A stretch of DNA of 64,000 bases. Source: an uncultured candidatus Porisulfidus sp. (GTDB lineage Bacteria > Pseudomonadota > Gammaproteobacteria > Poriferisulfidales > Poriferisulfidaceae). A program made the translations under genes and the position numbers. Position 1 is the stretch's first letter, and each line of letters begins with the position of its first letter. This document shows, piece by piece, positions 25,820 through 33,863 of the stretch. The stretch lies in NCBI GenBank assembly GCA_965116025.1, contig OZ220480.1, positions 64,001 to 128,000 of the forward strand, given 5' to 3'. Below the pieces are notes generated by a model. The model was given only the letters and a program-made list of their open reading frames with translations, was not told the origin of the DNA and did no database searches.

Positions 25820-26811
25820 TTAGTCGCCCGTCGTAGTTCGATAGAAAGCCACTTGTCGCCGTCCCAGCGCATATTCTACGCCCCCGATTCCTCGTCCCAA
25901 ACGGTCTACACATCGCACGAAAGATCGTCCTCTGTCAAAAGGCATTCTGAAAATGCAGAATGGAAGAACGAGCAAACAGCCTAGGCTTGTGCCCAACGCT
26001 CGGACCCCCCCCCCCCCCCCCCCCCCCCCCCCCCTATATATTGCCTACGAGCGATACTATTGGCTCGCGCTCTAGCGAATCCGTACTTTAGCATCAAGCG
26101 ATTCATGGCGATAGTTTCTTCCACGTGTAGATCCGTAGTAATAGCATGGCGACCACCTGCGAAAATCAGGTCCTCGTAAAAACGGAAATCTTCTCCTACC
26201 GCGAGGCTCAACGCCTCATCAAAACAGAGATCGTGAACGATCACAAACGCCATTCGAACCATCCAGTAACCCGTCCCTCTTATCGCCGCTCCATCTGCGC
26301 GATGCGCCCGCTCTCTCCAAATATCGCTACTTGCGATCATGTTTTCCGCCAAAGCTTTCCCAAAAAAGTTACAGTTTTCCAAGTCCGCTGTATATCGAAC
26401 AATCCCACAAACCAAATCCGCGTCTTCGGCTTTCTGCACTTGAAGCAACCCAGTTATCCAATCCGAGTCCACCCTGCAGTCATCATCGGTAAACGCCAAG
26501 AAATCACACTCATGGTCTGTGGCTATTTCAAGAGCTTTATTCCTCGCGTATGGAATTCCCAATCTAGGCTCAACCGAGAAATGAACCCGCGCAGGCGATG
26601 CCAATCGAGATGCCGCGAGCTTATCCTGGAAGACTGACACGGCCTTGGCCACGCCCACAGTTCCGACAGGATCGTTTTCCACGATAATGAACTGGAGCGA
26701 AGCATCGTCAGGAACCTTCAAAGCCACCCAAGATTCCAACAAATTAGAAAGCATGTTGGGCCGTCCGCGAGTGACCACCGCGACACCAACCTGGATCTTC
26801 TCTTCGCTCAC
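25820..26811 (-). CDS. GT2 glycosyltransferase paralog A, frameshifted at poly-G30
   Basis: VAVVTRGRP, IIVEND, GIPYARN, AFTDDD, GED. The current frame stops at 25981; the shifted frame continues VRALGTSLG...FYRTTTGD* to 25820. Confidence 0.85.
26005..26034. repeat. C30 homopolymer (G30 on the coding strand)
   Basis: Counted directly. Confidence 0.95.
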
Positions 26812-26955
26812 TCTACTTTGCCTAAAAAATTGGCGGTTGGATCGTCCTGAAAACGCTACACTTTCATATTGGTTCTTGCCGCATGGAAGCGCAAACTTGC
26901 TCCAAGATGCACATCGCATGCCTCGCCATCATCCCCCAGCCTTCGGATCCTGAAG

Positions 26956-27275
26956 CCCAGTCTCAACTTTCAAGTGCAACAGCATTGTAATCCAGTGAAG
27001 AGCGGCGAGGACGGTAGGATGACGAAGAGGATCGGGGAAAGCCGGCAAGGGTCGGTCGCGTTCCGTCTGGGGAAGGCCGGCCTTCCCCAGACGGATCAGC
27101 ACCGCGCCGACCTTCCCCCTCGGATTTACAGAAGCCGGGATATCTCCTCCCGCCAAGCGCAAACCACCTCGACTCCGTGCCGAAAAACGCCTCGTTCGGC
27201 GCGCGCCATCCCAAACGGCGCCGAGGCCGGTCGTTCAGGCAATCCTCCACCACCCGCGCCTTCTCCTCTGAGATC
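26956..27275 (-). mobile_element. Diverged IS30 remnant (3' end and one IR)
   Basis: IR CCCAGTCTCAACTTTCAAGTGCAACA; similar to 22619-23000; cut off by an IS1111-type left end. Confidence 0.85.
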
Positions 27276-27606
27276 GTGATGGGATGGTTCGCCCTGCTTC
27301 CCTGCTTGGCCTTGAGCGAGTGCAATGAGCATATGACCAACCCATCGCGAAAGCGGCACGACCCTTATGAAACAGACTCCACCTCAACTTGCCATCGCCC
27401 ATCTGGGCGTGGACCTGGGCAAACAGGCGTTTCCATGCTTGCGGCATGACGCGCGCCGGCAGGATCGTGCTGGAGAGGCGGTTCACGCGGGCTTAGTTGG
27501 AACGCTTCGCGGAGGAGCTGCCGCCGTGTCGGGTCGGGCTGGAGGCCTGCGGCGGCGCGCATCATTGGGCGCGGCTGTTCCGGCGTCAGGGGCATGACGC
27601 GCGGCT
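27276..27606 (+). mobile_element. IS110/IS1111-family remnant (left end and DEDD N-terminus; frameshift plus TAG)
   Basis: LGVDLGKQAF, VGLEACGGAHHWAR; homologous to the reverse complement of 31975-32305. Confidence 0.85.
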
Positions 27607-27765
27607 GTATCACAAGGCGCGGGCGGCGCTGGTTCGGGAGGCACCTCCGCGCCGCTTCCGGCCGCGGAGCCGGCGGCCATTCTTCCCCACGAACGCCCGT
27701 CGGCGCCACGGACGGCCCGAAATCATGCGAAAATCCTCCGCGCGGGGGTTTTATGCCAAGCACTA
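27607..27765 (+). mobile_element. Right end of an IS5-like element
   Basis: TTTATGCCAAGCACTA (27750-27765) is a 15/16 inverted match to TAGTGCTTGGCAGAAA at 30305. Confidence 0.6.
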
Positions 27766-30936: not shown

Positions 30937-32305
30937 TATATGGTTCGCCCCCTCCCTGCAAGTCGGAAGCTCGAGGCGACGGTCGATCAGCCGCGCGCAT
31001 ATATCCGGCCTCTCGGTGGGAGGACGTCGCCTCCCGGGCCCCGATGGGTTCCGCACGCTCCGGCCTTATCATTCGTACGGCCTCGAAGTCCTAGATCAAC
31101 ATCAGGCTCTCGGAGCGTCGGTCCGACCTGTTCCGCCATCCTTTCGCTTCTTCCCCGCAACCGACCTGGCGGGCATGGCCCGCCGGGATACGGAGGGAAG
31201 CCTCACGTCATGCAGGCTTCCTCCCGATAGGTTCCGCCGCGCCGGAGCAGCGCCCAGACGACGCGGACGTTCTTGTTCGCCAGCGCGACCGCCGCCACGT
31301 TGCTGTGGTGACGTTCCAGCAGGCGGCGAAGCCAGTCGCCGAGCGCGCCCTCGCGCTGGTCCGAGACCCGCAATACCGACCGCGCGCCTTGGATCAGCAG
31401 GCCGCGCAAAGCATCGTCCCCCCGCTTGCTGATCCCTCCGAGCTTCGGCTTTCCGCCGGTGGAATACTGCTTCGGCACCAGGCCGAGGTAGGCGGCCGCC
31501 TCCCGCCCGTTGCGGAACTCGCTGCCGTCGCCCAGCTTCGCGACCAGGGCGCTGGCCGACAGCGCGCCTATGCCCGGGATCGTCATCAGCCGCCGGCAGC
31601 CCGGATCGGCCTCGGCATGCGCCTGGATCCGCGCCCGGCAACTCGCCTCCCGCCGGTCAGCCCCCGCACCTCCTCGTGGCCGTCCGCCAGCGTCTCGCGG
31701 ACTTCCAGAAGCAAGCCGTTCTCGCCGTCCTCCAGGATCTCCGGCAGCCGCGCCCGAAAGACCCCGATCCCTTTCGGCATCACGATCCCGCGCTCCTGCA
31801 GAAATCCTCGCAACTGATTGACCAGCCGGGTGCGGTCCCGCACCAGCCGCTCCCGCGTCCGATGGCATTGCTGGATCGCTTGCTCGGACGGCTCCGCGCC
31901 TCTCGGATCGCCTCCGCGTCGCGCGCGTCGTTCTTGCTCGACTTCACGAACGGCTTCACGAAGGACGGCGCCATCAGCCGCGCGTCGTGTCCCTGACGAC
32001 GAAACAGCCGCGCCCAGTGATGCGCGCCGCCGCAGGCCTCCAGCCCGACCCGACAGGGCGGCAGCTCCTCCGCGAAGCGTTCCAGCTGAGCCCGCGTGAA
32101 GCGCCTCTCCAGCACGATCTTGCCGGCGCGCGTCATGCCGCAAGCGTGAAACGCCTGCTTGCCCAGGTCCACGCCCAGATGGGCGATGGCGAGTTGATGT
32201 GGAGTCTGCTTCATAAGGGTCGTCCCGCTTTCGCGATGGGTTGGTCGTACGCTCATTGTGCCCGCTCAAGGCCAAGCAGGGAAGCGGGGCGAACCATCCC
32301 ATCAC
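30937..32305 (-). mobile_element. IS110/IS1111-family element with frameshifted recombinase (31203-32214)
   Basis: GVDLGK, LEACG, KNDARDAEAI, IPGIG, AYLGLVPKQYSTGG, AVALANKN; sub-terminal IRs ATGGTTCGCCCC at both ends. Confidence 0.9.
30945..31200 (-). ncRNA. Putative bridge/seek RNA-encoding non-coding right end of the IS1111-type element
   Basis: ~260-bp non-coding end downstream of the recombinase, which is where IS1111-group guide RNAs are known to lie. RNA boundaries were not determined. Confidence 0.55.
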
Positions 32306-32799
32306 AATAGCTTGGCACGGTACACAGGGGCCTGTGTTGCACGACGGCGTATCAACCAGAAAGGGCCAATCAACAGTCGATAAGTCCTTGACGCATACCA
32401 AGTCTCCCGAAAACGCCAAAAAATGGCCCAGACTACTCTGGTGCTTATCGAAAGGTCTTCAAGGATACCGCCTGATACCTGCAACTCAAGATTATCACCG
32501 TCGTTTAGCTGAAACATGTCTCGCAATCGGCAGGGAGCTATAATCTCAATAATATGCAATGGATGGCCCTTCGCGCGTGCGACCAAGCATCGCATTCCAC
32601 CAATTTCACAGGCCCAGAAAAAGGCATTTTCTCCCAACATAAGCTCGACCAGAACCGGATTAAATCGGATCGGTTCATCCAGTGCCAAATTCAGGGTCCC
32701 TCGCTCTGGATGCTTACCAAAAAATTTGATTAGGGGGGGGGGGGGGGGTCGCTTCGAGTAAGTGCCACGGCCACTGATCACGCGACCATGCAAAATCAT
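32302..32799 (-). pseudogene. Riboflavin kinase-like domain, paralog B; GT4 part absent beyond the IS1111 junction
   Basis: GRVISGRG, PERGTLNLAL, IIEIIAPCRLRDMFQLNDGD. Colinear with the N-terminus of 24191-25762 up to YRAKL; the stop is supplied by the IS end. Confidence 0.78.
32733..32748. repeat. G16 homopolymer (C16 on the coding strand, poly-Pro, in frame)
   Basis: Counted directly. Confidence 0.93.
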
Positions 32800-32857
32800 G
32801 AGATCAGGCATGATGGAAATTCTGGAGGGGAGTGGGGAAAAAATAATATGGCAGGAA

Positions 32858-33863
32858 CTAATCGCCCGTCGTATTTCTATAAAATGGTATTTGAAGCTTC
32901 CCCAGAGCATGCTCTACACATCCTAACCCCCGCCCCAAGCGCCTTACGCCTCTGACAAAAGAACGCCCACGGTCAAGAGGTACCATGCAGGCACGAAATG
33001 GTAGAGTAAGCAAACCGTTCAAGCTGATACCCAGCGCTTGAAAGCCCCCCCCCCCCCCCCCCCCCCCCCCCCCCCCCCCCCCCTAGAATTTTGGTAGCGA
33101 TAGCATCCGCTCGCGCTCTAGAAAATTCGTACTTTAGCGTCAAACGGTCCGTAGAGATAGATTCCTCTACATGAGTATCCATGGTAACGGCATAGCACCC
33201 CCCTATAGCAAGCAAGTCTTTATAAAACCTAAGATCTTCTCCTGGTGCAAAACCCAAGCTTTCATCAAAGTGGAGACCATGAGAAATCACGAATTCCATT
33301 CTGACCATCCAATAAGCTGTTCCCATGGGTATCGGGCTATCTTTATCTTCGCGATGCATCCGCTCTATCCAAGCCTCGGTCCCGCAAATTCTATCCCTCG
33401 CCAGAGCCTTTCCAATGATGTTGCAACTTCTTATGTCTACCGTGTACCGAACAATGCCACAAACCAAATCCGCATCCTTGGCTTTCTGCGTTCGGAGCAA
33501 TCCAGTTATCCAACCTGGCTCCACCCTGCTATCGTCATCGGTAAACGCCAAAAAGTCACACTCATGGTCCATGGCCATTTCGAGGGCTTTATTCCTCGCA
33601 TACGGAATTCCCAATCTAGGCTCAACCGCGAAATGAACCCGCGAAGCCGGAGCCAATCGAGATGTCGAATGCTTATCTTGGAAATTTGACACGACCTTGG
33701 CCACTCCCTCGGTTCCGGCAGGGTCGTTTTCCACGATAATGAACTGGAGCGAAGCATCGTCAGGAATCTTCAAGTCCACCCAAGATTCCAGCAGGTTAGA
33801 AAGCATGTTGGGCCGCCCGCGAGTGACCACCGCGACACCAACCTGGATCTTCTCTTCGCTCAC
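32858..33863 (-). CDS. GT2 glycosyltransferase paralog B, frameshifted at poly-G39
   Basis: Highly similar to paralog A. The current frame stops at 32973; the shifted frame gives GFQALGISL...FYRNTTGD* ending at 32858. Confidence 0.85.
33045..33083. repeat. C39 homopolymer (G39 on the coding strand)
   Basis: Counted directly. Confidence 0.95.

Follow-up and report, generated by a model that had tools for sequence, protein, structure and literature searches.

Long poly-G tracts before the conserved C-terminal tails of two paralogous glycosyltransferase genes point to phase variation in an uncultured Ca. Porisulfidus species

Results

Two GT2 genes with poly-G tracts at the same site

The DNA analyzed here, referred to below as the window, is a stretch of 64,000 nucleotides (nt) from an uncultured candidatus Porisulfidus sp. 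(assembly GCA_965116025.1, contig OZ220480.1, positions 64,001 to 128,000 of the forward strand), and the subject of this study is a pair of family 2 glycosyltransferase (GT2) genes on its minus strand, GT2-A and GT2-B, in each of which a long run of G separates the catalytic core from a sequence encoding a C-terminal tail (Table 1). The products of both genes matched the Pfam GT2 family PF00535 above its cut-off of 23.3 bits (A, 38.1 bits; B, 36.7 bits), and the start assigned to GT2-A agrees with the MSEDKIQ of P0002, a homologue from another genome. The two genes are paralogues with 70.5% amino-acid identity across 258 core codons, and comparison of their cores gave a ratio of nonsynonymous to synonymous substitution rates (dN/dS) of 0.27 with a dS of 0.70. 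The tracts follow 259-260 of about 330 codons and are downstream of both the DDD and the GED motifs; the aspartates of the DXD motif in the N-terminal half (D146, D147 and D148 in P0002 numbering) are invariant in all 13 rows of the alignment, A and B both having TDDD. Matches to at least 12 G numbered 52 (overlapping) in the window against 0.06 expected, and none of 100 shuffles had as many.

As assembled, both genes are out of frame after the tract. The GT2-A product consists of the core, 10 glycines and the residues SERWAQA before a stop codon at 25981-25983, and that of GT2-B of the core, 13 glycines and 23 residues before a stop codon at 32973-32975; all 10-13 glycine codons of the two tracts are GGG. 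Reading of the bases that flank the tracts revealed that tail A can be joined to the core only when the number of G's is 3n+1, and tail B only when it is 3n+2. Since the assembled tracts have 30 and 39 G's, respectively, each gene is one base away from being in frame (A by +1, B by -1). The first-pass annotation of this DNA had described twin GT2 paralogues with G30 and G39 tracts at the same position, after the catalytic motifs, both causing early stops and needing G(3n+1) in A and G(3n+2) in B to reach a homologous tail of ~60 residues. Our analyses bear out each of these points, the two tracts falling in one and the same alignment column.

Table 1. Features of the GT2 locus (positions in the window)
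Feature	Position	Strand	Basis or remark
GT2-A 5' leader	26812..26935	-	Counterpart in copy B 33864-33985
GT2-A catalytic core	26035..26811	-	GTG start, 259 codons before tract; PF00535 match, translation, homologue alignment
Tract A, G30 on coding strand	26005..26034	-	Second-longest G/C run of genome
Tail A, 60 codons (25823-26002) and stop (25820-25822)	25820..26002	-	Homologous to C-termini of P0002 and same-genus homologues
GT2-B catalytic core	33084..33863	-	GTG start, 260 codons; PF00535 match
Tract B, G39 on coding strand	33045..33083	-	Longest G/C run of genome
Tail B, 61 codons (32861-33043) and stop (32858-32860)	32858..33043	-	
Gene downstream of GT2-A: riboflavin-kinase-like (DUF120) N-terminus and GT4, 523 aa	24191..25762	-	PF13692, PF00534, weak PF01982; NCBIfam GT4 matches
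Remnant downstream of GT2-B: riboflavin-kinase-like part only, 169 aa	32305..32811	-	PF01982 2.9e-08; NF040694 1e-08
C16 on coding strand within remnant	32733..32748	-	In frame as assembled (RPPPPPL)
Mobile-element-rich spacer between twins, ~5 kb	27273..32308	.	ISNCY transposase fragment, IS110 fragment, TIR-domain gene

Conservation of the C-terminal tail

The closest homologue outside the window was P0002 (365 aa), which is 62% identical and in which the core continues unbroken into '...IAIGGHERRGLCRGFGTSFLGLVTLPFCLSRMPFDKGRSFVRG...YRTTTGE'. Seven of 41 related genomes that were searched had matches, including six of the 15 others in the genus, and the open reading frames (ORFs) cut from those loci were of 304-338 aa with the same tail present. 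In all 11 full-length homologues (P0002, P0004 and nine from the same genus, L010 being excluded because its contig ends inside the gene) the tail is fused to the core, and the alignment of these 11 contained neither a G tract nor a glycine linker at the A/B site. Common to their tails is the motif PFD.GRSFV ... G.IE..LG ... YRTTTG[DE]. Other searches returned little that was close: five protein homologues of the GT2 enzymes including those of the window, none closer than 62%; distant GT2 genes alone (25-51% identity over parts) in a scan of genome contigs with P0002; no relative in a scan of metagenome contigs with the GT2-A core; and no match to a DNA pattern of the tract A flanks with a variable run between them.

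To compare the three frames behind the tracts, the ratio of the proportions of nonsynonymous and synonymous differences (pN/pS) between tails A and B was calculated for each. At a nucleotide identity of 65%, the two tails have 39 of 60 residues in common, their differences being distributed 20/11/32 over codon positions 1/2/3, and pN/pS was 0.315 in the tail frame versus 0.867 and 1.495 in the other two. The latter frames contain stops, share 19-22 of 59 residues between A and B and yield unconserved peptides of 7-8 or 22-23 residues. These values show purifying selection on the tails in the tail frame only, and the 60-residue tail is a genuine, ancestral part of the protein that is normally fused to the core. 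Because the tail frame is open and has a low pN/pS despite a core dS of 0.70, selection has evidently maintained the tail over a long divergence, a finding that speaks against the genes being dead. A dN/dS test of the tail frame had been suggested as a check in the first-pass annotation, and its outcome indicates a selected tail. A further suggestion made there, that useful C-termini are exchanged for each other by slippage, is not supported, as the alternative frames are short, interrupted and unconserved. Given that these frames are unselected and that 11 of 11 full-length homologues have the tail, the states are better called full-length and truncated.

A split gene in which the tail has its own start was considered and rejected: no start codon with a ribosome-binding site was seen at the head of tail A or tail B when the sequence was inspected, and all homologues are fused.

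Homopolymer tracts also occur elsewhere in this family. Residues ~103-111 of P0002, at another, variable site of the enzyme, include eight consecutive prolines, possibly encoded by a C tract. In addition, four of the 10 same-genus GT2 homologue loci (L006, L007, L010 and L012, from genomes G001, G009, G002 and G007, respectively) have a run of C12-C14 located 200-215 nt upstream of the ORF; the context of the run in L007, ttgccgtaaC12tataaa, resembles a promoter spacer. This GT2 family thus seems to be a recurrent target of such tracts, at differing sites.

Predicted structure and role of the tail

The fold was examined on the homologue P0002, rather than on A or B themselves, by means of an AlphaFold2 model for which the alignment of A, B and their homologues served as input. 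The model (mean predicted local distance difference test score, pLDDT, of 80.4) has a GT-A core, and Foldseek matched it to AvpGT, TarP, hyaluronan synthase and TarS with E values of 1e-10 to 1e-8. A sequence search of the PDB gave weak GT2 matches only (best E 3.9e-05), and an NCBIfam search with P0002 gave no equivalog-level match. The last core helix of the model spans residues 282-299 and is followed by two tail helices (303-323 and 331-350); the tract site corresponds to the short loop between the core helix and the tail helices. A glycine run is tolerated in such a loop, and this is perhaps the reason that A and B hold the two longest tracts of the genome. In all 11 homologues the tail has a single hydrophobic segment and is positively charged (net charge +3 to +9), features that would suit a membrane-association element of an inner-membrane enzyme.

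Long G/C tracts in the genome

The genome is closed (2,018,984 bp, 62.7% GC), which allowed all of its homopolymer runs to be counted. The numbers of G/C runs decay geometrically up to a length of 8 nt (nine runs), there are none of 9-14 nt, and then there are 45 of 15-39 nt, which span 17 different lengths with a mode of 23. Runs of A/T end at 10 nt. Over half of the long tracts, 24 of the 45, are located in a family of autotransporter-like genes, where they are runs of G16-G27 (e.g., at C1:1062605, 1471950 and 738458) in the context tcttcccgcataG(n)catagcctccgt, 23 codons past the ATG and immediately ahead of the signal peptide's hydrophobic core. The open frames behind these tracts are of about 890-1,166 codons. 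An autotransporter beta-domain was confirmed in the one member scanned (PF03797, 6.8e-26), and the others were assigned to the family by their shared flanks and N-terminal peptides; a scan of genome contigs with one of these proteins found no relative. As assembled, four of the 24 copies are in frame and 20 are out of frame; the copy at 1011129 was assigned by eye to the latter, since the ATG that would make it ON is in the wrong frame.

Six further tracts consist of C when the coding strand is read, and head giant genes rich in fn3 domains. One of these, a frame on the minus strand that extends from the window (44727-64000) to C1:137568, has 9,613 codons from stop to stop at ~76% GC and starts directly after a coding-strand C29 at C1:137569-137597. 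Eight tracts are associated with defence-type genes, seven of which were scanned with Pfam: a Type ISP enzyme, N6 and N4/N6 methylases, GmrSD, a DUF499 protein, a HATPase protein and a PAPS-reductase-like protein; the eighth tract is at genome position 154914. Two tracts have a promoter-like context, TTGACAaG20TATAAT (C1:772596-772615) before GmrSD, one of the eight defence-type genes, and TTGACAG15TATACT (C1:789208-789222) between divergent RTX-repeat and HlyD genes, and slippage in these two putative spacers would alter the -35/-10 spacing. Of the remaining six, three are in or beside the GT2 twins, one is at the end of an ABC transporter gene, one is between two frames without a Pfam match and one has no adjacent long open frame. 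The tract-bearing genes thus belong to classes that are classically phase-variable. Both MutS and MutL are present as intact long open frames.

Variation in tract length and distribution in the order

Among 45 pairs of paralogues with at least 90% identity over the 45+45 nt that flank their tracts, only six were equal in tract length, and the differences ranged from 1 to 8 nt, to which consensus error may contribute a base or two. Tract length therefore evolves faster than the flanking sequence. A search for sequencing runs yielded one, X1, possibly from the source sample, and none of RNA. Data on the population were limited to the Logan contigs of X1, whose alignment skipped repeats and gave no length distribution. 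In that run contigs end on both sides of tract A, and a single contig that spans 32280-33600 is 18 letters shorter than the window, at some place within this stretch. Together, the contig breaks and the 18-letter shortfall are a weak hint of other tract lengths. A contig joint in these data (33600 -> 26549) was considered as a rearrangement and rejected, as it reflects the continuation of copy B aligning to its paralogue A past the end of the stretch that was compared.

Runs of at least 15 G were identified in 21 of 41 genomes of the order, including 11 of 15 within the genus, and in none of the 12 genomes of family f2, which are of ~1 Mb. A genome of the same order from another family (G034) has 74 such runs, more than the present genome. 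Based on this distribution, long G runs can be regarded as a lineage trait.

Duplication and neighborhood of the GT2 genes

The twins belong to a duplicated segment (25264-26935 and 32307-33985) that is a mosaic in its degree of similarity. Identity amounts to 85-98% over the 5' leader (~110 nt) and the initial ~400 nt of the genes (MAFFT alignment with sliding identity; 26396-26935 versus 33448-33985), but to 57-70% in the 3' half, the flanks of the tract and the tail. The similar 5' part suggests gene conversion, constraint or a conserved regulatory leader, and the diverged 3' half would be the one that usually shapes acceptor choice in GT-A enzymes. The homology of the remnant downstream of GT2-B to copy A stops at about 32307, beside an IS110-like fragment. 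At the codons where the remnant has its C16, copy A (25695-25710) has an interrupted pyrimidine run that encodes DSPPPL; as assembled, the two form a natural pair, with slippery and stabilized versions side by side.

The neighbors of the twins include GT8-like, GT9 heptosyltransferase-like and methyltransferase genes, which led us to regard the locus as a surface-glycan cluster. The spacer between the twins is bounded by inverted repeats of ~335 nt (27273-27607 and 31975-32308, 93% complementary) that enclose 4.4 kb, and it encodes a 482-aa protein with a ThsB-like TIR domain. Parts of the spacer had a very high contig depth in run X1, as would be expected of repeated or mobile DNA. Elsewhere in the window, an ORF of 456 aa at 14683-16053 has an adenine-methyltransferase-like region and a C-terminal match to the HNH region of IscB/Cas9d (E 9e-11), and is probably a methylase-HNH fusion.

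Discussion

Proposed mechanism

Taken together, these data make it likely that the GT2 twins undergo slipped-strand phase variation, in which one length class yields the full-length enzyme and the remaining two yield a product that lacks the tail, independently in A and B and as part of a set of 45 loci. Both twins share with contingency loci a perfect tract, far beyond chance expectation, inside an ORF, and a length of that tract that sets the full-length frame. In the mechanism we propose, GT2-A and GT2-B would be diverged glycosyltransferases of a surface-glycan cluster that have a hypermutable G run in the loop between core and tail. Replication slippage would add G's to, or remove them from, tracts A and B; a single length class (3n+1 in A, 3n+2 in B) would bring the tail into frame and give the full-length enzyme, and the other two classes would give a protein ending 7-8 or 22-23 residues past the poly-glycine. 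As such, each gene would be a stochastic, reversible ON/OFF (or full/crippled) switch, and in the assembled consensus both twins would be OFF, one base from ON. Since the 3' halves of the twins have diverged, the pair could yield up to four glycan states. We infer, rather than observe, the variation in length within the population and its rate, the inactivity of the truncated GT2 enzyme and the identity of the glycan that the twins make.

Several observations weigh against this interpretation. Both twins are OFF and only four of the 24 autotransporter-like genes are ON, which is under the one-third expected of free-running switches and would also fit decay. The operon partner of GT2-B has been cut short beside insertion sequence (IS) fragments. 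Run lengths of 30-39 nt may be off by at least one base in an assembly, which makes the ON/OFF calls unsafe, and the evidence on length variation within the population comes from the contigs of a single run. No close strain turned up in our scans for a comparison of the same tract. Finally, although high rates of slippage in repair-deficient Campylobacter and Helicobacter are well known, such rates cannot be assumed here, given that MutS and MutL are intact.

Other explanations of the tracts

Slippage might act on expression rather than on the gene. RNA polymerase, or possibly the ribosome, could slip on the tracts and give all three frames from any tract length, in which case the tract would be a damper or rheostat and not a heritable ON/OFF switch. 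The RNA-DNA hybrid of RNA polymerase is 8-9 bp long, and runs of 30-39 nt far exceed it. An expression leak would also make it affordable for 20 of the 24 autotransporter-like genes and both GT2 genes to be out of frame. In bacteria, slippage during transcription has been documented on long runs of A/T (PMC1088944). Its efficiency on G/C runs is uncertain. Moreover, the tracts of paralogues differ in length in the DNA, so that slippage at the DNA level is certain over evolutionary time, and we consider it unlikely that the tracts act as such a damper.

It could also be argued that the twins are decaying pseudogenes and that the G runs are mutational hot spots which broke them, with no adaptive switching. 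Frameshifted genes are frequent in symbiont genomes, and here both twins are out of frame, IS fragments crowd the stretch that separates them and the downstream partner of GT2-B is truncated. However, in decaying genes it would be difficult to account for a tail frame that is open in both copies and bears the mark of purifying selection even though dS in the core is about 0.7, or for tracts that are pure, uninterrupted and at the same site in both copies, each only one base off the in-frame length. The design is moreover shared by 45 loci, whose genes belong to classes that are typical of contingency loci. Decay therefore strikes us as very improbable as an explanation of the locus.

There is only a slight chance that the assembly miscalled fixed, in-frame lengths (e.g., 31 and 38) of runs that simply encode glycine linkers. 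In favor of such a miscall, long homopolymers are error-prone in every sequencing chemistry, the tracts are just +1 (A) and -1 (B) from in frame and the site is an insertion-tolerant loop. Against it, a linker selected at the protein level would mix glycine codons instead of using GGG throughout, none of the 11 full-length homologues has such a linker, the 45 runs have 17 lengths with none of 9-14 nt and differ by 1-8 nt between paralogues with near-identical flanks, and at the tracts the contigs of run X1 either break off or deviate in length. A role of the tracts as G-quadruplexes or recombination signals was also considered, but it leaves the frame logic and the gene classes unexplained.

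Comparison with known phase-variable systems

For a few human pathogens, phase variation through slippage at homopolymers belongs to textbook knowledge, and its mediation by poly-G is already known; what is new here are the length regime of 15-39 nt, the apparently repair-proficient background and the host lineage. The opa and pilC genes of Neisseria, from families that encode surface proteins, have repeats where the signal peptide is encoded, the opa-type units being CTCTT. The 24-member autotransporter-like family resembles these in having a slippery tract in the leader peptide of each copy and in having most copies OFF, but its repeat is a G run of 16-27 rather than CTCTT, and the likeness concerns the genomic context of the GT2 twins and not the twins themselves. 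Campylobacter is without a functional MutSL system, whereas MutS and MutL are present in the genome described here. The tracts of the lgt genes of Neisseria are 10-17 nt in length, in contrast to the 30 and 39 nt of the runs in the twins, which are also positioned near the 3' end before a conserved tail and not inside the catalytic part. In addition, the host of the twins is not a human pathogen but an uncultured sponge-associated gammaproteobacterium, in which switching is predicted from the sequence.

Poly-G tracts occur in lgtA, lgtC and lgtD, lipooligosaccharide glycosyltransferase genes of Neisseria gonorrhoeae (PMC2192423). The twins are like these genes in that a G run in the coding frame of a glycosyltransferase shifts the frame according to the number of G's, with an altered glycan as the outcome, and in that several genes of one surface-glycan locus each have their own tract (PMC2192423). 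A parallel in position is the C-terminal phase variation of Helicobacter canadensis (Snyder et al. 2010, PMC2823697), in which poly-G tracts toward the 3' ends of genes change in length and alter the C-terminus rather than stopping the protein early; the tracts there have at least 10 nt, the widest range being 12-20 G. In both cases the tract is near the 3' end and the frames differ only in the C-terminus. Snyder et al. suggest that alternative C-termini may matter (PMC2823697). Functional alternative C-termini in that sense were not found in the twins, where one frame of the three is conserved and selected (pN/pS of 0.32, versus 0.87 and 1.50 for the others) and slippage would decide whether the ancestral tail is present or absent.

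The phasomes of Campylobacter (PhasomeIt, PMC6321876) offer a comparison at the level of the genome. Like the genome studied here, they have dozens of poly-G/C tracts, mostly within ORFs, with G mainly on the coding strand, in genes for surface structures and restriction-modification (PMC6321876). The lengths are very different, however, as tracts of 9 (53%) and 10 (26%) nt make up 79% in Campylobacter and those of 13-15 nt are rare (PMC6321876), whereas here there are none of 9-14 nt, 45 of 15-39 nt and a mode of 23. The statement in the first-pass annotation that the tracts of the twins are far longer than those of known contingency loci is consistent with these figures for Campylobacter (9-10) and H. 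canadensis (12-20).

Implications

A search of the literature, with subscription journals outside its coverage, found no description of such switching in sponge symbionts or in Ca. Porisulfidus. In this uncultured, sponge-associated bacterium, which resembles sulfur oxidizers, the same design would govern glycosyltransferases, a 24-copy surface family, giant fn3 proteins and defence genes, on tracts that are two to four times the usual length and in the presence of intact mismatch-repair genes. We speculate, tentatively and with some doubt, that the lineage runs a whole phase-variable set (surface glycans, about 30 adhesin-type genes and restriction or defence genes) on G tracts of 15-39 nt in a distinct length regime, with none of 9-14 nt and with MutS and MutL intact. 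Switching could then be so fast, possibly with a contribution of RNA polymerase slippage, that the surface of every cell lineage is constantly re-randomized, and the GT2 twins would be the extreme case, in which a poly-glycine tolerated in a loop allows unlimited growth of the tract.

If sequencing reads were to confirm the switching that we propose, it would mean that frameshifted genes in metagenome-assembled genomes of this kind are not necessarily pseudogenes, which calls for caution on the part of annotators. The lineage would also provide a natural system in which to study the trade-off between tract length, mismatch repair and switching rate. For marine symbionts that are beneficial or commensal, stochastic switching of surface and defence functions would be established as a core strategy, presumably directed against host recognition and phages.

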